A stretch of DNA of 63,635 nt, filler included, from Limisphaerales bacterium (lineage in GTDB: Bacteria > Verrucomicrobiota > Verrucomicrobiia > Limisphaerales > SIBE01), in assembly GCA_044225505.1 (NCBI GenBank). It is 3 parts of 3 records of this genome, joined end to end, with 100 filler letters (N's around TTAATTAATTAA, not from the genome) between each part and the next. Parts side by side here need not be neighbours in the genome. Positions count along the whole stretch, not along the records: positions 45,107 to 63,635 come from JBGAIN010000159.1; 2 more parts are not named here. One strand, 5' to 3'. Shown piece by piece: positions 3,108 to 63,635 of this stretch. The position numbers and the translations under genes are program-made. Under the pieces are notes generated by a model, which saw only the letters and a program-made list of their open reading frames with translations, was not told the DNA's origin and did no database searches. The stretch's first letter is position 1, and every line of letters starts with the position of its first letter.

Positions 3108-4970
3108 ATGGACAACGGCTGCGCTGATCCCAATGGTCGACGACAACTTCTTGAAGTCCGGGAATCAACGGTCCGGTTCGTCGGCGATTCCGGCGACGGT
3201 ATGCAATTGGTCGGCAGTCAATTTGCCGATCTAGCTTCCCTTTCCGGATCGGCCATCCGAACGATTCCGGATTTTCCTTCCGAGATTCGTGCTCCGGCAG
3301 GAACCCTCGCCGGCGTTAGCGGATACCAATTGAACTTCGGCGACGAAGACATCACCACCCCAGGAGACAACCCATTCGTCTTGGTAGCAATGAATCCGGC
3401 CGCGCTCAAGGTTAGCCTGCCAGACGTGCAAGCGGGCGGGATCATCATTGCCAACGTCGACGAATTTACTCCGGCCAATCTGGCGAAGGCCAAATATGCC
3501 GCCAATCCTCTGGAGGATGGAAGCCTCGTCGGGTATCGCGTGATTCCTGTGGGTATGAGTCAGCTCACAGACGAAGCAACCCGGCCGTCCGGATTGCCAG
3601 GGGTCGAAAGAGCTCGCTGCAAGAACTTTTTCGCCCTCGGAATGGTCCTTTGGCTTTATGACCAGCCGATGCAACCGTTGCTTGAGTGGCTCATGAAGAA
3701 GTTTCTCAAGTCGCCTGCGGTCATGGCTGCCAATGGTGCCAGCTTGCGAGCCGGCTATAATTTTGCCAACACCACCGAGTTGTTCCGCGTCCACTTTCAT
3801 GTCGCCCCGGCGCAACTCGCCAAAGGCCGGTATCGCCGAGTTACTGGAAACGAGGCCATGGCTCTGGGGCTCATCGCGGCTTCATGCCGTGCGGAACGAC
3901 CCATCGTCTATGCCAGCTATCCCATCACGCCCGCGAGTGAGATTCTTCACGAACTCTCCGCCCGGAAGGAGTTTGACGTAAGGGTTTTGCAGTGCGAAGA
4001 CGAAATTGCCGCCTGTTGCGCCGCTATTGGCGCCTCCTTCGCTGGCGCCATCGGTATGACCGGTACGAGCGGCCCTGGGCTCGCCTTGAAAACCGAAGCT
4101 CTAGGCTTGGCGGTGATGACAGAGCTTCCGCTCGTGGTGGTAAATGTCCAGCGCGCCGGTCCCAGCACGGGTATGCCCACCAAGACCGAGCAAAGCGATT
4201 TACTAATGGCTCTCTACGGCCGTCATGGAGAAGCCCCGCTTGCAGTTTTGGCGGCGGCCACCCCCGCTGACTGCTTTACAACCGCGATTGAAGCCGTGCG
4301 AATCGCGACCCGCTACATGACGCCGGTGATCGTTCTGTCCGACAGCTTTCTGGCGAATAGCGCGGAAGCGCTCGCGATCCCGAACGTCGACGCTTTGCCG
4401 GACTTGCGGGTGGCCTCGCCAACCAGTCAGACCAAGGATTTTGCGCCCTACAGCCGTCATCCACAAACGCTGGCGCGTCCGTGGGCTGCTCCAGGAACCG
4501 AAGGTTTGGAACATCGCATTGGCGGGCTGGAGAAACAGGATATCACGGGCATTGTCTCGTACGATTCCGACAACCATCGGCACATGGTTGAGCTGCGCGC
4601 CCGAAAGATCGCGCGCATTGCCGACGACGTTCCGCCTGCCACGGTCCTCGGAGAACCCAAAGGCGACCTTCTGGTCGTCGGTTGGGGCAGCACGCACGGC
4701 GCCATTACAGCAGCGGTCAAGCAAGCTCGCGACGAAGGGCACGCCGTCTCGCACGTGCATCTTCGCTATCTCAACCCACTCCCCCGGAATCTGGGCGAGC
4801 TTCTGCGCAATTTCCGCCATGTTTTGGTTCCCGAAAACAACCTCGGTCAGCTGGCGACCGTCCTGCGCAGCCAGTTTCCGACGGAAATTACCTCGCTGCC
4901 GAAAGTCGAAGGGCGACCCTTTCTAATTCGCGAAATCCGTAACGCAATCGAAGGCATTATCCGAAAATGA
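3108..4970 (+). CDS. korA: 2-oxoacid:ferredoxin oxidoreductase alpha subunit (gamma-alpha fusion)
   Basis: GDSGDGMQ, YPITPASEI, QCEDEIAA, TSGPGLALK, QRAGPSTGMPTKTEQ motifs. Confidence 0.9.
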   Translation: MDNGCADPNGRRQLLEVRESTVRFVGDSGDGMQLVGSQFADLASLSGSAIRTIPDFPSEIRAPAGTLAGVSGYQLNFGDEDITTPGDNPFVLVAMNPAALKVSLPDVQAGGIIIANVDEFTPANLAKAKYAANPLEDGSLVGYRVIPVGMSQLTDEATRPSGLPGVERARCKNFFALGMVLWLYDQPMQPLLEWLMKKFLKSPAVMAANGASLRAGYNFANTTELFRVHFHVAPAQLAKGRYRRVTGNEAMALGLIAASCRAERPIVYASYPITPASEILHELSARKEFDVRVLQCEDEIAACCAAIGASFAGAIGMTGTSGPGLALKTEALGLAVMTELPLVVVNVQRAGPSTGMPTKTEQSDLLMALYGRHGEAPLAVLAAATPADCFTTAIEAVRIATRYMTPVIVLSDSFLANSAEALAIPNVDALPDLRVASPTSQTKDFAPYSRHPQTLARPWAAPGTEGLEHRIGGLEKQDITGIVSYDSDNHRHMVELRARKIARIADDVPPATVLGEPKGDLLVVGWGSTHGAITAAVKQARDEGHAVSHVHLRYLNPLPRNLGELLRNFRHVLVPENNLGQLATVLRSQFPTEITSLPKVEGRPFLIREIRNAIEGIIRK

Positions 4971-6010
4971 GCGCATCTACCACCCCTGCCCCAGCGAACG
5001 TCCCGTTGGAAGCTCCTCGTTCGTTCACACGCCGCGACTTCCAGTCCGCCCAGGAAGTCCGCTGGTGTCCAGGCTGCGGCGACTACGCCATTCTTGCGCA
5101 AGTACAGAAAGTTCTCGCGGGCTTGGGAATCCCTCGGCACCAGCACGTTTTTGTTTCGGGCATCGGCTGTTCGTCGCGGTTTCCCTATTACATGAATACC
5201 TACGGGTTTCACACGATCCATGGGCGCGCCCCGGCGATCGCGACGGGAGTGAAATGCGCGAATCCGGAGCTGACGGTGTGGGTGATCACCGGGGATGGAG
5301 ATGGTCTGTCCATTGGCACCAATCACCTTATCCACGCCTTGCGGCGCAACGTGAATCTCAAGGTCCTTCTGTTCAACAATCGGATTTACGGGCTGACCAA
5401 AGGGCAATATTCGCCGACCTCCGAGTTCGGTAAGCGAACCAAGTCGAGCCCGCTTGGCACAATCGAGGAACCCATCGGACCGGTGCAGATCGCGCTAGCC
5501 GCGCAGGCAAGTTTCGTGGCTCGGGCGCTTTACGCCGATCCGATCCACCTGGGCCAAATCCTCGATGCCGCCGCCCGGCATAAGGGAGCGGCCTTCGTCG
5601 AGATCCTGCAAAACTGCAAAGTCTTCAATGAAGACGCGTTCACTTCGCTGGCGACACGCGCACAAGCGGCCGAAACTCGGATTATGCTGGAAAACGGCAA
5701 GCCGATCGTGTTCGGTGCCAACGGACACAAGGGGCTGGCCGTTCGGAATATGGATCCAGTCATCGTCGACGCTAGCTCAGCCGCCGATGTGTTAGTTCAT
5801 AATACTCACACGAACTCGCCCGCTTTGGCGTCGCTCCTGGCTGAACTCGATCCCCCCCAGTTTCCGACGGCGCTGGGAATCTTCCGCCAGGTGGAGAGGC
5901 CGGTCTATGATCAACTCTTAACCGAGCAGATCCAGTATGCGGTCCAGAAACGGGGCAAGGGCGATTTGCGTGCGCTGCTCAACGCGGGAACCACCTGGTC
6001 CGTCGATTAG
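4967..6010 (+). CDS. korB: 2-oxoacid:ferredoxin oxidoreductase beta subunit
   Basis: WCPGCGD, SGIGCSSR and the TPP-binding GDGDG...NN motif; overlaps the alpha stop codon. Confidence 0.9.
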   Translation: MSASTTPAPANVPLEAPRSFTRRDFQSAQEVRWCPGCGDYAILAQVQKVLAGLGIPRHQHVFVSGIGCSSRFPYYMNTYGFHTIHGRAPAIATGVKCANPELTVWVITGDGDGLSIGTNHLIHALRRNVNLKVLLFNNRIYGLTKGQYSPTSEFGKRTKSSPLGTIEEPIGPVQIALAAQASFVARALYADPIHLGQILDAAARHKGAAFVEILQNCKVFNEDAFTSLATRAQAAETRIMLENGKPIVFGANGHKGLAVRNMDPVIVDASSAADVLVHNTHTNSPALASLLAELDPPQFPTALGIFRQVERPVYDQLLTEQIQYAVQKRGKGDLRALLNAGTTWSVD

Positions 6011-51956: not shown

Positions 51957-54900
51957 TCAGGCAAGAGCTCTCAACTCCAGTTGCACCGGGAGCCATTCGG
52001 TTTGGCATTCGATCGGAAGCTGGGTGATTGCGGTAGTCACCGGCGATGAGCAGATGCTGGCCAGCGCTGGCCAGCTGCGGAGAAGTGCTACCACGTCCTT
52101 GAGGAACGCACTGACTCTTTCAGACGAGTCGCTCGAATCTGCATTGAGCCTCCAGGCCCCATCAATAAGCGCTGCCCCAATTCGTGTTGAGTCAATCGGT
52201 TGGCTCGGCGCAAGTTCGACCTTCGGCGAAGCTCCGAGCTTGGCTAGTGCGATCAGTTCTGAACGAAGTTTCGCCTTCACGGTCGTTTCGCCGAGTTGGG
52301 CAGCCACCTGACATGTTGCCATGATTAACTCCGGCAGCTTCGCGTTCGTCGTAAATTCGCGAGCAAGGGCCAACGTCGAGAGCGTACGACTAAGGATTTC
52401 CCGCCCGCCGGTACTGAACGTTCCGGATCCTCCCAGAAACTCGACCAACCCCCAAAGGCTTGCGTCCCCAGGGTCACGGGCCAAGCGGCCGATTGCGCTT
52501 TGGAGATCACAGAACTGTTCCAGTGAGGAACACATGGCGATGGCATCGGGGCCCAGTAGCCGGGGAAGGAAGTTTTCGCGCGGCACCGCCAGAAACGAAT
52601 TCAGCCCATTAGAGTAGCGAGTGACCGGTTTCAAGAATGGTAAGCTTCCAATCTTTGTTTCCGAAACTAAAGTCGTAGACAATGCTTCTCGTACCCCACT
52701 TCCCATGATCACGGCTTCGGTAGTACCCTCGAAAAGGAAGCCCATGCCCCGTACCAGAAGGTCACCAGGATCGACATTTCGAGGGTGGCAAATGTCTCGT
52801 GGCCAGGAGCGGTGCACCCCCACATCTGCCTCGAGTTCCTGACTGTTGTCCGAGAACCAAGCCGTCATGTCTGCAGATGTGCCATGCGGGAGGATTGACT
52901 GTAACTGCCCGGCGTGGCTCCAGAGGGTCGCCAGACGGACCGCCATGGGCCAAGAGCAAAAATCTGGTCTCCATCCGAGTTGCATGCTTGCCCATCGCAG
53001 AATCGCTGAGAACTCCGCGGCCTCTGCTCCACCACGCTTGGGGTCGCAAAGATACGAAACGAATTCACGTACTCGCTCAGTAACCTCAAGCTTCGAGGAC
53101 GAACGAAGCCAAAGTCGCCCCAGGTGTAGGCGTTGAACAAAGCTGGTCATCTCGCTGGCCAGCTCGCCGAGAAGCGCAGCCGCCGTCGCGCTGTCTTGCG
53201 AATCAAACTGCTTCTCCACCAGCATCGGTAGCGCAGTAGGTAAGCACGAGAGTCGCCGGATTGTCTCCTGCAATCCTTCACTTCGCAGTAAATCGGCGGC
53301 GGTTGAGTCGCGAATGGAATTGGTTTCCGAGGAGCCTGTCCGGAGGCGCAGGAAACGCGGAAGACTTTCAATGCTTTTCGGGACGAGCTCGCTGATTGAG
53401 ATCATCCGCTTCCGCTCGAATGCGGATCGCAGTCCGGCATAGTAGTTTGCCATCGATTCGCTTTGATATTCCTCCAGCAGTTTCACACGCACGATTGGCT
53501 GAGTCGTACGGATGATCCTATCGATCGCTGCTTCGCGTTCTGCCGCATTTAAGTCGAACCACTCGGGATGAGCACGCAGCAGACGCGCCTTTTCGTCGAC
53601 ATGTTTGTCAAACAAAGGCAACATTTCTATCTCTGTCAAACCGTGCTTGAGAATACGAAGCGTTGTTGAAGTCGACCCTCTGGAAAAGCGCAATTTTCCT
53701 TTGCCGTCGATTGATTCTAGAGTGGCGCCTCCGTCCTTTGCCGCCCGCGCGACAGCAGCCCAGAACTTGTCATCATTAAAACTCATTCCTGCCATTTCGA
53801 TTCCCGACCGTTGGACCGAGATTCCATATTCCTGGAATCTCTCGTCGGGAAGCTCAAGGGCGGCCCTGATCTTGTCCGGAAGATCCAAAATCAATTCTCC
53901 TACCAGGAGTCGTATACCCATCTCCTCTGAGCTCTTTTCGCCGTGCCTCGAGCGAGCATCTTGGATCCACTGATCTGCACTCCGGAGAGTGTCCGCAAAA
54001 AATCCAGCTGCAATCCTGGCCAGAGCTGGCATTTTGGCAGAAAGCGGGTTCAGTAGCCGCTCGGTAATCCAGCGAAAGAACCTCTGGCGTCGTTCGGTGC
54101 GGCTCTCGCGTGGACCGCTGAAGCGCAAGCCTTGGGAATAAAAGAGGCCAAGTGTGAGGCCTAGCGAGTGGAGATCCGTCTCAGCGCCCTGACGCGACTT
54201 GTAACACTGGCGCAGGACGCGGAAATCTAGGAACAGACTATTCAGGACCCAGTCCGCACGCGCCTCAGCTTCCTCAAGCGTGGCTGTGCCAGTCCAGAGT
54301 GCCAGCAGAGCTTCGGTAGCGGTGCGGGTAAACGCGAGCGGCAGCGCCATCTCCCGTAAGGTCCATTCGCCAGATGAATTCGCGGCCGCTTCCTGAAGTA
54401 AGTCACAGTCCAGTAACATGCTCGCTGTGGCCCGTCGGACCGCACGAAGCGCCGGCGTCTCCTCCACCATATGGTTCTGTATGTGCGCTCGGGAGAGATG
54501 GTAAAGAATCTCGTCGTCTGTCAAAGGTAGATAGCGGGCGTTCGCTGCCCGGAGGCGGAGAATCCAGGCGTAGTAGTTGGCTTCACTTAAAAGCCCTGTT
54601 GTTCGTAAATGCGCAAAGAGATCCACTAAACCCGCAAGCGGGGACCGGCCCGTGGACTGATACGCTTGTAAGAAGCGATCGTCACAACAGACGATTGATC
54701 CGACGGTCTCGCCAAAGTCGATCGTATCGTAAAGACAAAGTTCCTCCAGGCTGACACCCTCGGCTCCGGTTTCTGGCACCGGGCGTGTTCGGAAATGCGT
54801 TCGATACTTTCCGGAGTTCTGACCGCGGGATAGTCGGTCTAGGAGGTCCCCGATCTGCTCCATCAGCTTCCGGTTTGCTAGGTCCGACTCGAGTTCGCGC

Positions 54901-57320
54901 TTTAGACCTGAGACCTCTGAACTTCCGATGAAGACCTCACAGTGAGCTGCCAGATGACGAAGGCAATCTTTGGATGCCAAATCCTCGGCGACGCCGTGCT
55001 CGAGGTAAACAAACATCCCCTTCCGCAATAGTGGCGGTGTGGAAGCGAGTACATTTTTTTCGCCCCCCCGCTGCAGATGAGTGTCCGGAAGTAGACCAGC
55101 CACGTTCATTGCATCCGTTAGTGCAGTTTCCGAGCAAACAAATTTGAAATCTTCGGTTGGCAGGGAGACCGGTCGCGGTGGATGCCGGTTGCTGATCAGC
55201 GGAAAATGGTCCACGAGCAATCCCCTGTTACCGCGAACCCACTCGAGGATCCCACACCACTCGTCGCCCATTAGATCCTGCAGACGATGACCGGTGATCG
55301 AACTTACTTCCGGATGATACTGCTTTACCTTTCCCCCATCGAGCAGCGCCAGGACGGCTTGCTGGGCGGCGAGCCGATTGGGTTGACGATGCGTGAGTTG
55401 CTCAAGCTCCAGAGTCAATGCAGCTGTTACGTGGTCGGACACTACGATTTCATCGAATATTTGCTCGATCACATCCAGAAAGCCGATCGCGTGGCAGAGA
55501 AAGACACTGGTCACGTCCAAATAGATTGTCTTCTCGCCTGCCGGTATTGCAGCGGGCATCTGGGCGGCCCTGAGTCCGTGCCGGATCAACAGTGGTGGGC
55601 AGAGACGAGGATAATCATGTGCAGAATTGCGAATCGCAGTCTCGACGATCAGGCGCCCAAGGCCTGTTCGGATACGACCCGGGAGAATATGAATCGGCAC
55701 TAAGCCTTTCGAGTAAAGCTCGAGAAGTTTTTCAGTTCCCGCATGGGATTCGCGGATGAACTCAATCATCTCCTCTATCGACAGTGCCTTAATTGGCGCC
55801 TCCCCGGATTGGGCCATGGCCGGGATCTCCTCCAGAAGATCAACGGCTCTTGATTCGACACCGAGTGCGAACGACTGAAGAGCGGCTTGGGTCTTTAGCA
55901 CTGGGTCCTCTCCAATGCTGTTCACTGCTTTCTCCCACAGCTTTGCAGCAAGTGCCGGATCTCTGAGGCGTACGACTGGGGCCACCTGGAGCAGGAAACT
56001 TGCAGGGACATCAGTCAATTCTAGCAGTTTGCGAGCGGTCACTGCACTGCCGATTAGATCCCCTTTCGCCTGCTGCAGCGAAAAAAGACGGCCGATGTTG
56101 GGAAAGTTAGGCTTCTCTAGGACGAGTTTCTCAAGCTCGCCGATCGCCAAGGGAACTCTCCCAAGGCGTCGCAAACACTCCGCCCGCAGCCTACGCAGAT
56201 CAGCCGCCAATTTCCCGCCGGAGCAAAGCCCATCGTGCGTATCCAGCAGGGAAAGCGTCAAATCGAAATTGTTATTATTAAAGCTGCCCTGAACCGCCAA
56301 ACGCAACGCACTCTCCGTTCGGATCTCCACGACCAGCCGCTTCGAATGTTCGGCTATGAACGCCCAGTCAGCAGCCTGAGCCTTTGCCTCACAGCAGCTC
56401 AGCAGGAGAGCCGGTTCTCCCGTCACTGCGAATGCCTGTTCCAGATGAGCCGCTATAGAACGAGGATCCTGAGAGCTTCGCGGGTTCGATCGAACCACGG
56501 CTGATTCCAACGCTACCCTACGGTGAACGTCCGGTTCATCCGCGAGTAGTGCACTTGCTTCCTCGACGCGACCAAGTGCCGCGAGACATTGAATTTTGTG
56601 CGTCCGCCATGCGCAAATTGCGTCCCAACGACTGAAGCTACCTTTAGTCTCCGCTAAAATGGCCTCTGCTGCTCCGAATTGATCACTCGTTCCAAGCGCG
56701 ATGAGCAGGGCCTCTACCTTCTCTCGATCAGTCGTGCCTTTGGCAATGCCTTCGCGCAGTTTTTCTATCGAGGACCTTCGGTTAAACTCGTAGTCCCGTT
56801 CACACGCCCAAACAATGGCGGGAGCGTAATCCGGCGAGTCAGACAGGATCGACTGGGCCAGACTCTGAGCATTCTCTTGATCCAGATCGTTGGCAAGGCA
56901 GGCAAGCTCCCAAACACGTAGTGAATTGCGATCTTGTCTGAGAGCAAGCGCCAGCAGTTCGCGGAACCTTGCCGCGGCCGAAGCGCGTCTCGCTGCGCTT
57001 TCGGGATCACGCTTAACAAAGCTCCAGGGTGGTGGAATCGGCCAGCTGAGGTGACTCCATGCGGGGAAAGCTGTTGAAACCGTGCTGGCATAATCCACAA
57101 TCGCGGCGGTGAGGCGCAGGCCAAAGTGGTTTGGCTTAGACCGGAGCTCTTGCTTAACCAACTCCCGCGCCTCGTCTGGCCTTCTCATCAGCAGCATGGC
57201 CAAGGCTTTCGAGTGCGCGGTCTCTGCCGTCGGAGTAAAGTGCGGCGGTGGCGTAGCAACGCGCGCCAAGACTTCTTCGGGACGCCCAAGTTCAAGCAAA
57301 AGTTGAAGCGTTAATCCCAC
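51957..57320 (-). CDS. Large TPR-like/PIN-like protein (C-terminal part of a split gene)
   Basis: Helical repeats, then IYLDVTSVFL...IFDEIVVS, VYLEHGV and IVCCDDRFL PIN-like motifs. Confidence 0.7.
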   Translation of the reverse strand: MGLTLQLLLELGRPEEVLARVATPPPHFTPTAETAHSKALAMLLMRRPDEARELVKQELRSKPNHFGLRLTAAIVDYASTVSTAFPAWSHLSWPIPPPWSFVKRDPESAARRASAAARFRELLALALRQDRNSLRVWELACLANDLDQENAQSLAQSILSDSPDYAPAIVWACERDYEFNRRSSIEKLREGIAKGTTDREKVEALLIALGTSDQFGAAEAILAETKGSFSRWDAICAWRTHKIQCLAALGRVEEASALLADEPDVHRRVALESAVVRSNPRSSQDPRSIAAHLEQAFAVTGEPALLLSCCEAKAQAADWAFIAEHSKRLVVEIRTESALRLAVQGSFNNNNFDLTLSLLDTHDGLCSGGKLAADLRRLRAECLRRLGRVPLAIGELEKLVLEKPNFPNIGRLFSLQQAKGDLIGSAVTARKLLELTDVPASFLLQVAPVVRLRDPALAAKLWEKAVNSIGEDPVLKTQAALQSFALGVESRAVDLLEEIPAMAQSGEAPIKALSIEEMIEFIRESHAGTEKLLELYSKGLVPIHILPGRIRTGLGRLIVETAIRNSAHDYPRLCPPLLIRHGLRAAQMPAAIPAGEKTIYLDVTSVFLCHAIGFLDVIEQIFDEIVVSDHVTAALTLELEQLTHRQPNRLAAQQAVLALLDGGKVKQYHPEVSSITGHRLQDLMGDEWCGILEWVRGNRGLLVDHFPLISNRHPPRPVSLPTEDFKFVCSETALTDAMNVAGLLPDTHLQRGGEKNVLASTPPLLRKGMFVYLEHGVAEDLASKDCLRHLAAHCEVFIGSSEVSGLKRELESDLANRKLMEQIGDLLDRLSRGQNSGKYRTHFRTRPVPETGAEGVSLEELCLYDTIDFGETVGSIVCCDDRFLQAYQSTGRSPLAGLVDLFAHLRTTGLLSEANYYAWILRLRAANARYLPLTDDEILYHLSRAHIQNHMVEETPALRAVRRATASMLLDCDLLQEAAANSSGEWTLREMALPLAFTRTATEALLALWTGTATLEEAEARADWVLNSLFLDFRVLRQCYKSRQGAETDLHSLGLTLGLFYSQGLRFSGPRESRTERRQRFFRWITERLLNPLSAKMPALARIAAGFFADTLRSADQWIQDARSRHGEKSSEEMGIRLLVGELILDLPDKIRAALELPDERFQEYGISVQRSGIEMAGMSFNDDKFWAAVARAAKDGGATLESIDGKGKLRFSRGSTSTTLRILKHGLTEIEMLPLFDKHVDEKARLLRAHPEWFDLNAAEREAAIDRIIRTTQPIVRVKLLEEYQSESMANYYAGLRSAFERKRMISISELVPKSIESLPRFLRLRTGSSETNSIRDSTAADLLRSEGLQETIRRLSCLPTALPMLVEKQFDSQDSATAAALLGELASEMTSFVQRLHLGRLWLRSSSKLEVTERVREFVSYLCDPKRGGAEAAEFSAILRWASMQLGWRPDFCSWPMAVRLATLWSHAGQLQSILPHGTSADMTAWFSDNSQELEADVGVHRSWPRDICHPRNVDPGDLLVRGMGFLFEGTTEAVIMGSGVREALSTTLVSETKIGSLPFLKPVTRYSNGLNSFLAVPRENFLPRLLGPDAIAMCSSLEQFCDLQSAIGRLARDPGDASLWGLVEFLGGSGTFSTGGREILSRTLSTLALAREFTTNAKLPELIMATCQVAAQLGETTVKAKLRSELIALAKLGASPKVELAPSQPIDSTRIGAALIDGAWRLNADSSDSSERVSAFLKDVVALLRSWPALASICSSPVTTAITQLPIECQTEWLPVQLELRALA

Positions 57321-58922: not shown

Positions 58923-60434
58923 TCACGCTGCGCCCTTTAGACTGTCGTCCGAGTCCTTGATGACGAAGCGGGCGCGGAGGCGTGCAACTTCGCTGGCAAG
59001 GCCGGCGAGCCGCACGGAATTCAACACTTCGTTGAAATCCTTATAGGCCGCTGGTGCTTCGTCCTTCGGATAGGTGCGACAGTTGGTCAAGATGTCGTGT
59101 GCCGCAAACTCATCATCCACCGTCTTTTGATCGAGTTCGCGGATGGCGGCTTTGCGACCCTTGGCCCGGCCCGCACCATGGTTCACGCTGTAGCAACTTT
59201 TGTCTGCACCCGGATCCGCGACCATGACGCAGGATCCGGCAGTTGGGTTACCGGGCAATAAGATCGGATGGCCAGTTTCGTAGAATGGCGTGTTCTTCAG
59301 CGCGAAGTGCTTCGCCGGGAAAGCACGGGTCGCACCTTTGCGATGCACCCAGCATTCCTGGTTATTCACGATTTCGCGGCGCGCGATGTTGTGGCTAATG
59401 AAATACACAAGCTTGCCGCGGGTGCCAGGAATGATTTCCTGGAACGCTTCGAGCACAAGCACGTTGATGAGCATGTGGTTCACGGTCGCGAAGTTCGCGC
59501 CGAGCGACATGTCGTCGATGTAGTTGTCGGCCTCCGGAGTTCCGAGTGGGGCATAGACCAATTCGCGATCGTTGCCAGGCAAGGGAATGCTCCATGCGGC
59601 AAACTTCTCCTGCAAGGCGCGGAACTGGTCATTGGCCAGCGCATAGCCAAAGCCGCGCGAACCGCAGTGAGAGAGAAACGCGGTGCAGCCATCGCGCAGA
59701 CCGAAAACCTCGGCAGCGCGGCGAGCACGGTCGTTATCCGCTATCTGGACGGCTTCGCATTCGCCAAAATGATTGCCACCACCGTACGAGCCAAGCTGGC
59801 GAATCTTCTCCTCGAACTTCGGAAACCTGCCGGCGCTGATCAGCACGTCAAGCCGGGCGGCGAGATCGTCGCGCTGCCCGCTGTGGCCAAGATGGAAAGC
59901 GTCTTCGCAGTGCTCCGCCCATTCGGGTGGGATGCCAAGTTCAAGACATACACCTTCCGATGCGCCTTCAATCGCCACCCGGCGACCGAGTTCAGCGTTC
60001 ACGTTGCGGCCCTTCTTTACATTGCGCTGGCCTTTTCCCGCGCCAGTCGGCGTCCGTTCCACGATGGCATTGATGAGCGCGCGGCGAACGGTTTTGTCCG
60101 CCACGGCATCCACGGGGAGATCGAGTTGGAGCAGGCTCATGGAGCATTTGATGTCCACGCCGACCGGCCCGGGATAAATGTGCGTCGGCGAAACCAGCAC
60201 ACAACCCACAGGTGCACCGTAGCCAGCGTGCGCATCAGGATTGAGCACGAGATCGGTCACGCCAGGTGCGCCGCGCGAGTTCAAAGCTTGTTCGATGCAC
60301 TTGGCATCAAAGGCATCGCGGATCGCTGCCGTGCCGATGACGGTGATGGGTTTGCCCTTATCGCCCGGGGCGGGGATGAAGCCGGTGGCTTCGCCCGTGG
60401 GCTGGATGACCGGCGGCGTTGCTTCTGCATTCAT
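58923..60434 (-). CDS. rtcB: RtcB RNA ligase
   Basis: PDAHAGYGAPVG, GVDIKC, GGGNHF, HCGSRG, HRKGAT, HGAGR and DEAPAAYK. Confidence 0.93.
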   Translation of the reverse strand: MNAEATPPVIQPTGEATGFIPAPGDKGKPITVIGTAAIRDAFDAKCIEQALNSRGAPGVTDLVLNPDAHAGYGAPVGCVLVSPTHIYPGPVGVDIKCSMSLLQLDLPVDAVADKTVRRALINAIVERTPTGAGKGQRNVKKGRNVNAELGRRVAIEGASEGVCLELGIPPEWAEHCEDAFHLGHSGQRDDLAARLDVLISAGRFPKFEEKIRQLGSYGGGNHFGECEAVQIADNDRARRAAEVFGLRDGCTAFLSHCGSRGFGYALANDQFRALQEKFAAWSIPLPGNDRELVYAPLGTPEADNYIDDMSLGANFATVNHMLINVLVLEAFQEIIPGTRGKLVYFISHNIARREIVNNQECWVHRKGATRAFPAKHFALKNTPFYETGHPILLPGNPTAGSCVMVADPGADKSCYSVNHGAGRAKGRKAAIRELDQKTVDDEFAAHDILTNCRTYPKDEAPAAYKDFNEVLNSVRLAGLASEVARLRARFVIKDSDDSLKGAA

Positions 60435-60468
60435 AATGCTGCTTTCCGAATTGTTTCCCAAATAGACA

Positions 60469-60579
60469 GCGCGACAAGTTTTTGTCGAAACAATCGCTCT
60501 ACCACTGAGCTACGGCCTCATTCATTGAGACCGACGGGAGTCGAACCCGCGACCGATGTAGTTCCAACCGCATTCGCGC
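60469..60579 (-). ncRNA. Y-RNA-like unit F (YrlA-like: T arm, closed acceptor stem, D arm)
   Basis: GCGCGAATGC..GGAACTACAT-[GCGGGTTCGACTCCCGT, acceptor hairpin, TAGCTCAGTGGTAGAGC]-TTGTCGCGC. Confidence 0.8.
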
Positions 60580-60611
60580 CGAAATCATTTAACCGACGAC
60601 CAACTAAAAAG

Positions 60612-60742
60612 CGCGACGACAAGGTTTGGAGAAACATTTCCGCTGCTCTATCCACTGAGCTACTCCAACCTTTAGAAGGTCGGAGGCCGGATTTGAACCG
60701 GCGACCGTCGGATTACATGTAGTTACTCCGGCATTCGTCGCG
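60612..60742 (-). ncRNA. Y-RNA-like unit E (tRNA permuted in the anticodon loop)
   Basis: Same clamp; GCCGGTTCAAATCCGGC T arm, 10-bp acceptor hairpin, D arm and CGGA/TCCG anticodon stem. Confidence 0.8.
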
Positions 60743-60748
60743 AAAGAC

Positions 60749-60881
60749 TGTGACGACAAAATTGATGAAACGTATTAACGCGCTCTACCGCTGAGCTACG
60801 ATCCCATCTGGTGGAATCGGTGGGACTCGAACCCACGACCTCGTCCTCTTTAAGGATGTAGTTCCATCGGCATTCGTCACA
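60749..60881 (-). ncRNA. Y-RNA-like unit D (complete permuted tRNA with ACCA)
   Basis: Same clamp; anticodon loop, variable loop, T arm, CGATTCC-ACCA-gat-GGGATCG and D arm. Confidence 0.82.
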
Positions 60882-60892
60882 AAATCCCGAAA

Positions 60893-60993
60893 ATGGCGAC
60901 AAGGGTTGACGCGAATTCTCAACCAGCCTTGCAGCTGATCGGGCGGAATTTGAATCCGCTGGTTGCCAATGTATTCCCGTCTGCATTCGCCAT
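60893..60993 (-). ncRNA. Y-RNA-like unit C (T arm and acceptor hairpin only)
   Basis: ATGGCGAATGC...GCGGATTCAAATTCCGC...TTGTCGCCAT. Confidence 0.72.
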
Positions 60994-61005
60994 AACATTT
61001 CAAGA

Positions 61006-61136
61006 AGCAGCGCGACAAATAGGTGCAGGACAGTTTTTCTGAGCTATTCCGTTTGCACGGAACCGGGATACGAACCCGGGGCCTCCCGGCTAGGTCGGGC
61101 GCTCTACCATGTAGTCCTGCGGGCATTCCCGCCGCT
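61006..61136 (-). ncRNA. Y-RNA-like unit B (tRNA permuted in the D loop)
   Basis: The insert starts GGTAGAGC and ends TAGCTCAG, with anticodon-like, T and acceptor arms in between. Confidence 0.78.
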
Positions 61137-61170
61137 CCAAATCTCTCAAAGATCCATCACTGTCGAAACA

Positions 61171-61230
61171 GGCCGACAAATTTGTGCCGAGACTTTACAG
61201 TTGGGATGTAGTCCCAGGCGGCATTCGGCC
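61171..61230 (-). ncRNA. Y-RNA-like unit A (clamp only, 60 nt)
   Basis: GGCCGAATGCCG..GGGACTACAT...TTGTCGGCC with no tRNA module. Confidence 0.68.
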
Positions 61231-61299: not shown

Positions 61300-62853
61300 T
61301 CACAATGGGAGCGATTCAATCTCACCAACCCAGTGATCGGCGCCGAGCCGGCTCTCGGCGAACGCCGCGACGACCTGGAACACCTGGTCGGAAAATCCGC
61401 CAATGTTCAAAACGTCCTCGCGTTCCGCGGCTTGCACGGTGGCGTACGGCTGGATGTCGATGCAGACCAACCGTGCCTGCGGATTGAACCGCTTGAACAC
61501 GGACCACTGCCGCATCGTTTCCGTCCCGCGACCACCCTTGGCGTCCACCCACGACTCGTTGTCGGAAACGAACACCACCAAGTCGCCTTTCGCCTGCTTC
61601 TGGTTCAACCATGCGAGCGGCGCACTACAGTTGGTTCCGCCCCCGCCGATCGCAGCCAGCTTTTGCGCATTGGTCATCACACTGTCTCGACTGTTCAACG
61701 CTACGCTCACCACGTCCGACTCAAACGGAATCACTTCCGCCTGCGGGTTCTGGCGCAAGATGGAAGCCGCGACCAAGGCCGCCACATCTATGCACCGCAC
61801 GGCGGTCGTCGCACCAGCGCGTTGCCCCGTCACGGCCGTGCTCATCGAACCGGACACGTCCGGGCAGACATACACCTTGCCGGCGATTCGCGGCACGTTC
61901 GCCGTCGCCACTTCCATGGCGTCCTGGAGGGCATCGCGAATCAAGTTCGGCACATCGCCACCCGCCGCCTTGAACGCCATCAACAACTGATACGGAAACA
62001 CCCGGGCGCGCTTCACGGCGTCCGCGCTGGCAAGCCGGTTGGCGATTAATTTCACCATCGCCTCGTTCTCGAACACTCCATGCCGGGCAAAGGTGTTCAA
62101 GTTCATGCGCGTCATCTGCCAGGGCGCATTCTTGGCAATCGCAGTCCACTCGGCCTTTCCGAGATCCAACGCCGTTAACATCTGGAACGCGACATCCGGA
62201 ACGACATCGCGCTGGCCAGCCTTGAACGCCTCAAACTGTTTCACGATCTCCGGTAACGATTCCGCCTGGTGCGGACGACCGAGCAAATAGCCGTAAAGCG
62301 CTTCGCGGGTCGGGTTCCCCGGCTTCGGATGAACCATCTTCACGAGGTCTGCCAAGGAAGGTGCATTTCCCACCGACGCCCGGAACAACTGTTCATCCGT
62401 CCGGGATTCGAGCCAGCGCTGCACGAGTTTCTTGGAGACCGTGCCGAGGGACTTGCGGCCCACGACACCTGAACGCAACACCTGCACGAAGTTGCGGAGC
62501 ATCTTGCCGTCGTCGAGCACCCGGTCGAACACGGTACGGAGCAGTTGCGTATCCTTCACCGACAAAGCCGCGCACAACACCGCTGGCATATCCTTCATGA
62601 AACCCTTCTCCCGGGAATACACAGCGGTCTTGGCGATGAAGTCGGCATCCACCTCCTTGGCCAAGCTCAACACCTTCTGGAGTTGATCATCCGCCGAGGC
62701 GTAGAAAGTTGAGTTTAAGCAACCGGTCGCTGCATACTGGGCGAGCGCGTGCTTGGACGACAACGCGTAAGCCGGTCCACCGGCCTCGTTGGTGGTATCA
62801 GCCTTCGGGACCGACGCTCCCCGCAAGGATTGGAACAAAGTCTTGTTTGCCAT
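61300..62853 (-). CDS. rsr: Ro60/Rsr TROVE-vWA RNA-binding protein
   Basis: NEAGGPAY, WQMTRMNLNTFARHG, RVFPYQL, MIDAS motif DVSGSM and VSDNESW. Confidence 0.92.
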   Translation of the reverse strand: MANKTLFQSLRGASVPKADTTNEAGGPAYALSSKHALAQYAATGCLNSTFYASADDQLQKVLSLAKEVDADFIAKTAVYSREKGFMKDMPAVLCAALSVKDTQLLRTVFDRVLDDGKMLRNFVQVLRSGVVGRKSLGTVSKKLVQRWLESRTDEQLFRASVGNAPSLADLVKMVHPKPGNPTREALYGYLLGRPHQAESLPEIVKQFEAFKAGQRDVVPDVAFQMLTALDLGKAEWTAIAKNAPWQMTRMNLNTFARHGVFENEAMVKLIANRLASADAVKRARVFPYQLLMAFKAAGGDVPNLIRDALQDAMEVATANVPRIAGKVYVCPDVSGSMSTAVTGQRAGATTAVRCIDVAALVAASILRQNPQAEVIPFESDVVSVALNSRDSVMTNAQKLAAIGGGGTNCSAPLAWLNQKQAKGDLVVFVSDNESWVDAKGGRGTETMRQWSVFKRFNPQARLVCIDIQPYATVQAAEREDVLNIGGFSDQVFQVVAAFAESRLGADHWVGEIESLPL

Positions 62854-62886
62854 AATCGTCTCTTTCGTTCTGCTGCCATCTCCTAT

Positions 62887-62902
62887 TGCAGCCGCTGTGC
62901 CA
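62887..62902 (-). promoter_or_regulatory. Sigma54 -24/-12 promoter of the Ro60-Y RNA-rtcB operon
   Basis: TGGCAC-AGCGG-CTGCA, 33 nt upstream of the ATG and divergent from rtcR. Confidence 0.8.
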
Positions 62903-63037
62903 GGCTGAAAATGGCAGGGAATGACTCGCATAAAACGCAATGGATACAGGCCAACGCTCGCGATTCTAAGGTTCAGAGTGATTCAGTTTGCCAAGCACTG
63001 GGACTAGCGGATAGGCTAAATCACAGGAATAACCGCT

Positions 63038-63635
63038 ATGATACCTAGGAAACGGGTGGTGTTCGGCTTGCTCGGCAGCGTTCTGGACTCCGGGTTTCAC
63101 GAAGAACGGTGGAAACGATGGCGTCCCACCATTTCCCTGTGCAAACACGCCGAGCTGCCCATCGATCGCTTCGAACTGATTTACGATCCCAAGTTCACCG
63201 ATACCGCCAGAGCGATCATGGCCGATATCCCTCGGGTCTGCCCTGCCACCGTAGTCAAAGGTACGCCGCAACCGTTAGTCGACCCCTGGGATTTTGAAGA
63301 GGTCTATGCCGCCCTGTATGAATTCGCGCGCGGTTACGATTTCAAGCCCGAGACGGAAGACTATCTTGTCCATATCACGACCGGTTCCCACGTGCAGCAG
63401 ATTTGCTTGTTTCTGCTAACTGAATCGCGGCATTTCCCGGCCCGCTTGGTCCAGACCTCGCCGGCCGACAACAAACGCCGGGGACCGGAAGGCAAGTTTG
63501 CCATCATTGACCTTGATCTTTCCAAGTATGACCGGCTGGCCGCCCGCTTTGGCAAGGAACAGAAGGAGGCGCGCTCGTTTCTCAAGTCCGGCATCGCCAC
63601 GCGCAATAGGCAGTTCAACCGACTGATCGAACAAA
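63038..63635 (+). CDS. rtcR: RtcR sigma54 activator (CARF N-domain), partial
   Basis: Translated by hand: MIPRKRVVFGLLGSVLD...RWKRWRPTISLC...DPWDFEEVY...HITTGSHVQQIC...LKSGIATRN. Confidence 0.92.
   Translation, partial: MIPRKRVVFGLLGSVLDSGFHEERWKRWRPTISLCKHAELPIDRFELIYDPKFTDTARAIMADIPRVCPATVVKGTPQPLVDPWDFEEVYAALYEFARGYDFKPETEDYLVHITTGSHVQQICLFLLTESRHFPARLVQTSPADNKRRGPEGKFAIIDLDLSKYDRLAARFGKEQKEARSFLKSGIATRNRQFNRLIEQ

Follow-up and report, generated by a model that had tools for sequence, protein, structure and literature searches.

A predicted YrlA-class Y RNA with an anticodon-arm look-alike in the rsr-rtcB operon of a Limisphaerales bacterium

The rsr-rtcB locus and its array of Y RNA units

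The window, which is the whole stretch of 63,635 nucleotides that was analysed, comes from a Limisphaerales bacterium and consists of three contigs set one after another. The genome comprises 9.0 Mb in 342 contigs and is 95% complete. An 18.5-kb contig carries the locus discussed here, with rsr (the Ro60 orthologue), the RNA ligase gene rtcB and the N-terminal part of the regulator gene rtcR (Table 1). The rsr ORF ends at 61300 and is followed on the same strand by an array of tandem Y RNA units, an arrangement also found in relatives. Most relatives align with the listed rsr ORF only from residue 25-30 on, and the true start probably lies about 25-30 codons inside it. The start of rtcB is likely the ATG near 60435. 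The motif TGGCAC-N5-CTGCA ahead of rsr is presumably a sigma-54-like promoter; a stricter sigma-54 pattern, TGGC-N7-TTGC, had no match in the rsr leader. Scanned for promoters and terminators, the operon showed no terminator-like or sigma-70-like site inside the array. Just downstream of rtcB lies a large ORF with a double-PIN-associated domain.

An Rfam scan by E-value between rsr and rtcB returned five YrlA matches and one weak YrlB-like match, with unit F alone passing the curated threshold. The order A-B-C-D-E-F is also present in Pedosphaera-like MAGs at Rsr-anchored loci, where Rsr is 82-94% identical. An orthologue of unit D was identified in 12 Rsr-anchored genome loci and about 28 metagenome contigs. 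Among 40 relatives' genomes, a close DNA match was obtained in one only (G009), where E and F are kept and D is reduced to its 3' part.

YrlA RNAs have been defined by the motif GNCGAAN0-1G, proposed for Rsr recognition, together with T, D and acceptor-like stem-loops, according to the parts of Chen et al. 2014 (PMC4201824) considered here. Unit D matches the RF02553 model over its full length in a local search (62.8 bits, E 1e-13), below the gathering score of 69. This shortfall accompanies a 14-nt insertion absent from the model, which corresponds to the hairpin described below. The T arm lies 5' of the D arm, with the acceptor-like stem-loop between them, as in other YrlA RNAs. Judged from its sequence, unit D is a YrlA-class Y RNA and a new member of the family.

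Table 1. Features of the rsr-rtcB locus and of unit D, in coordinates of the window
Feature	Position	Strand	Basis or remark
rtcR, N-terminal part, divergent from rsr	63038..63634	+	Pfam RtcR 2e-78
TGGCAC-N5-CTGCA motif upstream of rsr	62887..62902	-	spotted by eye
rsr (Ro60 orthologue)	61300..62940	-	Pfam vWA_Ro60 6e-20, TROVE 6e-8
Whole array, six tandem Y RNA units A-F between rsr and rtcB, opposite rtcR	60465..61230	-	Rfam E-value scan
Unit A, YrlB-like	61171-61230	-	Rfam 15.5 bits
Unit B	61006-61133	-	Rfam 19.7 bits
Unit C	60890-60993	-	Rfam 33.7 bits
Unit D, fourth of six	60749..60881 (Rfam match 60747-60880)	-	RF02553 62.8 bits, E 1e-13, whole model
Unit E	60610-60741	-	Rfam 68.7 bits
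Unit F	60465-60580	-	Rfam 81.8 bits
rtcB RNA ligase ORF	58923..60461	-	Pfam RtcB 7e-97
Unit D: GACGAAUG, matches GNCGAAN0-1G	60871..60878	-	read from sequence; invariant in 35-row alignment
Unit D: terminal stem, predicted Ro-binding, 5' strand	60874..60880	-	pairs with 60750-60756
Unit D: terminal stem, predicted Ro-binding, 3' strand	60750..60756	-	pairs with 60874-60880
Unit D: second helix, 5' strand (partner 60764-60771)	60861..60868	-	8 pairs, 99.6% of cells paired, zero both-side changes
Unit D: anticodon-arm look-alike hairpin, CC, loop UUAAAGA, GG (tRNA positions 30-40)	60845..60855	-	
Unit D: ACG (positions 41-43), pairs with CGU 60778-60780 (positions 27-29)	60842..60844	-	
Unit D: T arm GUGGG UUCGAGU CCCAC	60820..60836	-	Rfam alignment; both-side change in 2/5 pairs
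Unit D: 7-bp acceptor-like stem with G3:U70, loop ACCAGAU 60806-60812	60799..60819	-	both-side change in 5/7 pairs
Unit D: D arm GCUC AGCGGUA GAGC	60782..60796	-	Rfam alignment and structure alignment
Re-read tRNA 5' half (acceptor 5' strand, D arm, G26, CGU)	60805..60778	-	
Re-read tRNA 3' half (CC, UUAAAGA, GGACG, AGGUC, T arm, acceptor 3' strand, ACCA)	60855..60809	-	
Linker GAU between acceptor strands	60808..60806	-	

The tRNA-shaped module and its anticodon-arm look-alike

An earlier note on this DNA had rejoined the two halves of unit D into a complete 75-nt tRNA with encoded CCA and an AAA anticodon. The letters and the cloverleaf are correct and lie on the minus strand. When the halves were joined by a script, ARAGORN reported a 75-nt tRNA-Phe(aaa) with stems of 7/4/5/5 bp, so that the check proposed in the note came out positive; on the unrearranged window it called no tRNA. 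In a control with arbitrary joins, a tRNA was called in 228/348 joins of unit D, 155/348 of unit E and 241/348 of unit F. The call on joined unit D carries little weight, because most arbitrary joins were also called tRNA. The reason is that all three units share tRNA-like acceptor, D and T arms, the features by which YrlA is defined. As the note had described, the anticodon stem is interrupted by the Ro stem between positions 29 and 30, and unit D can be read as a circularly permuted, nearly complete tRNA-like fold. The minimum free energy fold of the hairpin favours a 5-bp hairpin with an AAA triloop. Since the loops CUCAUAA and CUUACAA of orthologues are unable to form a triloop hairpin, the 7-nt loop is taken as the common form.

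The pattern used to collect orthologues from metagenomes was anchored at the unit's 3' side and thereby placed no condition on the hairpin or CCA. The pattern scan gave at least 120 stretches, mostly chance matches in coding sequence, and at least 28 of them passed a filter for the Y RNA frame. A handful of units of a second clade, ending in CGTCGG, were removed by the first version of this filter. The refined search, including the genome loci and the window, yielded at least 41 D-type units, 35 of them distinct. Their alignment comprises 25 close sequences (clade 1) and 10 of the second clade, and its rows are related sequences rather than independent events. On this alignment 99.9% of 1221 cells are paired. 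Both-side changes occur in 9 of 35 pairs: five in the acceptor stem, two in the T stem and two in the terminal stem, for which six pairs were counted with all cells paired. The covariation score is 0.242 versus 0.134 in shuffled alignments (reached by 0/500), and slid partners give at most 0.086. The ACG/CGU helix is 100% paired and nearly invariant, a figure partly forced by the search patterns. Within the clade, CC/GG and ACG/CGU are left without covariation support because they are invariant and partly forced in this way.

The arm was also examined across a broader set of YrlA-type units beside rsr, collected from the window and 80 loci, of which 86 units were parsed. Units were accepted by a T arm, a 7-nt acceptor pair, a D arm and an upstream GAAUG motif. 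In the test applied, the 2-3 nt after the D arm and the 3-2 nt before the loop had to pair with the five letters preceding a 4-5-nt variable loop, the loop sequence itself being unconstrained. An unrestricted search for split stems had proved too permissive and was replaced by this loop-length test. A split 5-bp stem with a 7-nt loop is present in 38 of the 86 units versus 7.8 +/- 2.5 in shuffled units (maximum 14), and other loop lengths stay at background. All 38 loops have U33, 37 have a pyrimidine at position 32, 37 a purine at position 37 and 31 an A at position 38; positions 34-36 can be any base. The signature holds in 27 units of other lineages, by record titles Acidobacteriota, Verrucomicrobiales and alpha- and beta-proteobacteria, in which both strands of 27-29/41-43 differ yet stay complementary. 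It is that of an anticodon loop with a free triplet, and the split stem with its 7-nt loop is a real feature of the class. The 5-bp anticodon stem, U33 and purine 37 singled out in the earlier note are thus borne out as a look-alike arm kept class-wide. A large subclass of bacterial Y RNAs copies the whole tRNA, anticodon loop included.

This arm has been described differently. Published accounts, as far as the parts considered extend, present the hairpin as a variable arm (Chen et al. 2014) or YrlA as lacking an anticodon loop (10.1101/312249). A literature search encountered no text that names the YrlA hairpin an anticodon arm, in the parts of the sources covered, PMC4201824 and 10.1101/312249 among them.

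The CCA and the anticodon letters were counted in the 25 distinct close orthologues among the matches listed. The letters following the acceptor 3' strand are AACA in 13, GACA in 4, AUCA in 3, AGCA in 2, ACCA in 2 and GUUA in 1. The two ACCA carriers are the window copy and one other locus (L034). Position 74 takes all four bases, and C75 and A76 are nearly fixed. Read against these orthologues, the CCA encoded in the window is a single sample from a loop position that varies freely. The 7-nt loops are UUAAAGA in 17, CUCAUAA in 2, CUUACAA in 2, and UUCAUAA, UUAAUGA, UUAAGGA and UUAAACA in one each. All 25 keep a 7-nt loop with U33, and positions 34, 36 and 37 vary. The resulting triplets are AAA in 18 (one of them in a loop with C37), CAU in 3, UAC in 2, AAU in 1 and AAG in 1. 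As anticodons they would correspond to Phe, Met, Val, Ile and Leu on one acceptor stem. Homologues, to which the earlier note had turned for conservation of the CCA and the anticodon arm, give a divided answer: the arm look-alike is conserved, but the CCA (2 of 25) and the anticodon letters are not. Because relatives keep neither CCA nor anticodon, unit D is regarded as a tRNA look-alike, not a spare tRNA gene.

The acceptor stem has its own signature. The 3:70 pair is U.G in 28 of 35 rows, with all 25 close orthologues among them, and C-G in 7 of 35. A pyrimidine precedes the acceptor at position -1 in all 25 close orthologues. Among 27 units with G3:U70, belonging to several phyla, the loop begins with A (22), any base, C (23) and A (25). 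G3:U70 is the identity element by which AlaRS recognises alanine tRNAs. A decoding product of unit D would mis-insert, because it would combine G3:U70 with the anticodon AAA. The host genome already contains 46 tRNAs, including tRNA-Phe(GAA), and CCA is encoded in almost every one of its tRNA genes.

Possible roles of unit D

Unit D is most probably an Rsr-bound YrlA Y RNA whose tRNA-shaped module, with a copy of the anticodon arm at its three-way junction, engages a tRNA-binding partner of the Rsr/RtcB system. By analogy with the family, it would probably be co-transcribed with rsr and rtcB from an RtcR/sigma-54 promoter. Rsr would then hold it through the terminal stem and the GNCGAAN0-1G motif. 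The module would most likely recruit or occupy a tRNA-binding factor for the Rsr/RtcB repair machinery. Because the anticodon triplet and the first C of CCA drift freely, unit D seems to mimic the shape of tRNA without decoding. The strict anticodon-loop signature and the conservation of G3:U70 suggest a function beyond generic shape mimicry.

An additional step may be considered within this framework. RNase P may open the acceptor loop of unit D, with the CCA then being repaired, as in Mycobacterium smegmatis YrlA. We regard this as a serious though not the expected outcome, since the 7-bp acceptor stem is common to unit D and the M. smegmatis RNA and a pyrimidine is present at -1.

A more elaborate alternative is a two-piece Y RNA. 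In this case RNase P would cut 5' of G1, the 3' end would be trimmed and rebuilt to CCA, the two pieces would stay paired on Rsr, and AlaRS would charge the G3:U70/A73 acceptor, in the manner of two-piece tmRNA. The precedent is M. smegmatis YrlA with its 7-bp acceptor: RNase P cleaves it, it gains CA, and its authors, in the portion of the paper considered here, raised aminoacylation as a possibility. Inspected by eye, its row in the seed alignment shows a comparable hairpin whose loop has 7 nt. In the 25 close orthologues, the 7-bp stem and the pyrimidine at -1 are constant, and G3:U70 is retained in every one while the adjoining pairs covary. The A, any, C, A start of the loop in the 27 G3:U70 units points in the same direction, as do weak Rfam matches to the tmRNA 3' end and to permuted tmRNA. 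RCCA is the sequence that contacts RNase P. The freedom of position 74 counts against selection for this contact. Salmonella YrlA and Yrn1 were uncut in the experiments of Chen et al. 2014 considered here, and for unit D the ends and the charging are purely inferred. In addition, G3:U70 may have been inherited from a tRNA-Ala-like ancestor, for which the identities of 78% to Ala and 81% to Lys are undecisive. On balance, the two-piece form is improbable.

Another proposal concerns the anticodon-arm look-alike itself, which could act as a bait for the anticodon nucleases by which tRNAs are damaged. Once nicked, the Y RNA would carry a 2',3'-cyclic phosphate end and feed the activation of RtcR or, on Rsr, serve RtcB as substrate or cofactor. 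Positions that are invariant in anticodon loops are kept while the middle triplet varies between relatives, and the ORF downstream of rtcB carries a double-PIN-associated domain. Moreover, the operon is switched on by nicked cyclic-phosphate tRNAs, as reported in the parts of Chen and Wolin 2023 (PMC10159003) considered here. Against this, the proposal is purely inferential; units E and F and Salmonella YrlA are without the loop, yet belong to the same operon type; and a free middle triplet is equally expected from neutral drift. A bait of this kind is therefore highly improbable.

Elements of the last two proposals could be combined for the whole anticodon-arm class of YrlA. It would then work as a sentinel that, once its loop has been nicked by anticodon nucleases, becomes an Rsr-held RtcR ligand or RtcB substrate, and whose G3:U70 acceptor loop RNase P may open to leave a CCA end chargeable with alanine. 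This combination is unlikely. If it were true, the Y RNA would be an active participant in the sensing of tRNA damage and not a passive scaffold. Since tRNAs with a nicked anticodon loop induce the operon, a YrlA with a copy of that loop and an alanine-type acceptor offers a concrete handle on the job of YrlA.

The earlier note had proposed a back-up tRNA. In that model unit D would be the gene of a permuted tRNA: once the clamp had been cut out, RtcB would ligate position 29 to position 30, and after opening of the acceptor loop the resulting AAA tRNA, induced by stress, would take part in translation. This idea for YrlA had already been published as speculation, to judge from the parts of Wang et al. 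2018 (10.1101/312249) considered here. The joined halves do form a canonical cloverleaf with encoded CCA, and RtcB is encoded 300 nt downstream of unit D. The reading founders on the orthologues, in which CCA is present in only 2 of 25, the anticodon is unconserved and G3:U70, present in 25 of 25, together with an AAA anticodon would cause mis-insertion. A34 is rare in bacterial tRNAs, which also counts against it, as does the tRNA-Phe(GAA) already available. No homologue of the splicing endonuclease EndA was found in the 95%-complete genome: a search with PF01974 (tRNA splicing endonuclease) gave 0 matches, with a control matching 4 archaea. An unrelated nuclease might conceivably serve instead. 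No bulge-helix-bulge could be drawn by eye at the junction of unit D. The Ro-binding motif and the stems are conserved as in other Y RNAs.

RNA libraries add a little to this picture. The assembled contigs of four libraries, with small shares of the sampled words, were compared with unit D; they leave the ends, strand and level unreadable, and gaps in their coverage are uninformative. A 169-nt contig (X1) spans 60732-60884 and differs from the window at two sites, one being the change of ACCA to AACA, and a 247-nt contig (X3) spans 60681-60908. Both derive from relatives, have AACA instead of ACCA and may reflect DNA carry-over. Because they are contiguous, the unit D of relatives occurs unrearranged in RNA libraries of two studies. 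Most 20-25-nt matches and apparent joints in the contigs were real tRNAs or Y RNAs of other organisms. The predicted 60778-to-60855 junction was encountered in none of the assembled contigs of the four libraries, which drop rare forms, and this is weak evidence against a spliced product. A permuted gene with a translating product is scarcely credible for unit D, and a decoding tRNA from it is, on the sequence evidence, very unlikely.

The fallback of the earlier note, a recent conversion of a tRNA into a Y RNA, does not hold either, with the unit kept in relatives whose Rsr is 82-94% identical. The best match among the tRNAs of the genome is Lys(UUU) at 80%, which equals the median best match between the genome's own tRNAs (0.79). 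Recent conversion was rejected because the unit is old and this match equals the background. Without the anticodon arm, the tRNA body is 81% identical to tRNA-Lys and 78% to tRNA-Ala, so that no donor tRNA can be named. A model in which YrlA originated from dimeric tRNA transcripts is cited in Wang et al. 2018 (10.1101/312249). Such a dimeric or tandem-tRNA origin agrees with the A-N-C-A left over between the two acceptor strands and with the anticodon arm having been kept.

Comparison with known systems

The closest known counterpart is M. smegmatis YrlA, as described in the parts of PMC4201824 considered here. RNase P cleaves this RNA both in vitro and in vivo, addition of CA completes a CCA end, and both halves stay in Rsr immunoprecipitates. 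It has in common with unit D the Ro-binding terminal stem, the permuted tRNA-like module and the 7-bp acceptor stem. Immediately 5' of the T arm it also shares, as judged by eye, a short hairpin whose 7-nt loop reads pyrimidine-U...AA. In the seed alignment of the same paper, the rows of M. smegmatis, Gordonia, Streptosporangium and a mycobacteriophage display, by eye, a 3-bp hairpin with a 7-nt loop, which the consensus structure line leaves unmarked. Unlike unit D, M. smegmatis YrlA is encoded upstream of rsr, outside the control of RtcR. Its acceptor loop has 4 nt and encodes only the first C, and its row, inspected by eye, has no G3:U70.

Salmonella YrlA belongs to the same covariance-model family and, like unit D, is encoded in an rsr-Y RNA-rtcB operon under RtcR. 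The T-before-D order and the nucleotides of tertiary contacts are common to both. According to the parts of Wang et al. 2018 (10.1101/312249) considered here, the Salmonella domain folds into the L-shape of tRNA, and the expected effector is a tRNA-binding protein. It differs in that its acceptor stem has 6 bp and its anticodon stem is continuous and kinked, the authors describing it as lacking the anticodon loop, and its operon contains two Y RNAs versus six in that of unit D. Compared by sequence, the module of unit D is more complete, with a predicted 7-bp looped acceptor, D and T arms, a 5-nt variable loop and the anticodon-arm look-alike. The "V" stem-loop of YrlA is described by Chen et al. 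2014, in the parts considered, as the counterpart of the tRNA variable arm. In the class of unit D, by contrast, a split 5-bp stem and a 7-nt loop with U33 and R37 are followed by a normal 4-5-nt variable loop, which fits an anticodon arm.

Permuted tRNA genes of red algae and some archaea resemble unit D in that the 3' half comes first, the acceptor loop is closed and the ends pair in the anticodon region (cited in 10.1101/312249). Their products, however, function in translation, with anticodons preserved and with processing by a splicing endonuclease and a ligase. For unit D, the PF01974 search found no endonuclease homologue in the 95%-complete genome, the anticodon and CCA are not conserved, and a Ro-binding module is conserved instead. 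Two-piece tmRNA (RF04321) shares with unit D a T arm, an acceptor 3' strand with ACCA, a short linker and a GGG start with G3:U70, although the match reaches 25.4 bits (E 0.006) against a gathering score of 47. Unlike tmRNA, unit D has no mRNA-like or pseudoknot part, and only the T arm, acceptor and CCA match (20.4 and 25.4 bits). The host's own tmRNA was located by ARAGORN on another contig (C86).

In the parts of Chen and Wolin 2023 (PMC10159003) considered here, nicked tRNAs ending in a cyclic phosphate are the ligands of RtcR, and tRNA repair has been proposed as the role of the operon.

A possible different permutation point in unit B

Unit B, another of the six tandem Y RNA genes between rsr and rtcB, has orthologues in relatives (loci L026-L049 and L081). 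In it, GGUAGAGC, comprising the end of the D loop and the 3' strand of the D stem, stands ahead of a hairpin, a variable loop, a T arm and an acceptor stem that is short and capped, after which UAGCUCAG is located. The unit resembles a tRNA mimic whose permutation point differs from that of unit D, the YrlA-class unit with a permuted tRNA-like module. Because of the order of the arms between GGUAGAGC and UAGCUCAG, the D loop seems to be the entry point of the Ro stem, the predicted Rsr-binding terminal stem. The loop of the "anticodon" hairpin ranges from 4 to 7 nt among relatives, GAAA being one example, and is therefore not anticodon-like.

Coordinates of Y RNA units and of the large ORF
Feature	Location	Strand	Remark
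Unit B	window 61006-61133	-	Rfam YrlA score only 19.7 bits
Unit F	window 60465-60580	-	
1787-aa ORF	window 51957-57320	-	same strand as rtcB and downstream of it, after two small ORFs, both unassigned
Unit E orthologue	L021 1349-1547 (G009)	-	
Seventh unit	L033 4745-4869; L038 4056-4180; L081 2617-2741		125 nt; between units A and B
YrlA units with GGG.../...UCC acceptor stem	L046 and L047 ~5042-5130; L090 ~4810; L093, L095 and L100 ~4880-4960		

Apparent paralogy and changes in the array

Units D and F look like paralogues. In several relatives (L029, L032-L039), F orthologues carry an acceptor stem with G3:U70 nearly identical to that of unit D, and share with it an A-N-C-A-G-A-Y acceptor loop. 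The window's own unit F has diverged, with loop AAUGAAU and G4:U69. In the same-family genome G009, the unit E orthologue has a 66-nt insertion within the T loop, and unit D is reduced to its 3' terminal strand. Some relatives have a seventh unit, in which the Ro-binding ends are present and recognisable tRNA-like arms absent.

Beside the repair operon, the 1787-aa ORF contains an HTH_upstream_double_PIN domain (1.7e-9) and a weak PIN-TPR-GreABC match, and may encode a large PIN-type RNase-associated protein.

Alanine-like acceptors and a proposed tRNA origin

The GGG.../...UCC stem with G3:U70, followed by A/G-N-C-A, is common to YrlA units of Verrucomicrobiales, a deltaproteobacterial MAG and Rhizobiales-type records, with ACCA in L095 and GCCA in L090. 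This distribution suggests that an alanine-tRNA-like acceptor subclass of YrlA is widespread. In the YrlA seed alignment of Chen 2014 (supplementary text 2, PMC4201824), the Chondromyces row begins, by eye, with an apparently whole tRNA in normal order (D arm, anticodon arm, T arm, CCA), after which a second D arm comes. As far as this row goes, the arrangement looks like that predicted by the dimeric-tRNA origin model, in which YrlA RNAs arose from tandem tRNA transcripts (cited in Wang 2018, 10.1101/312249).
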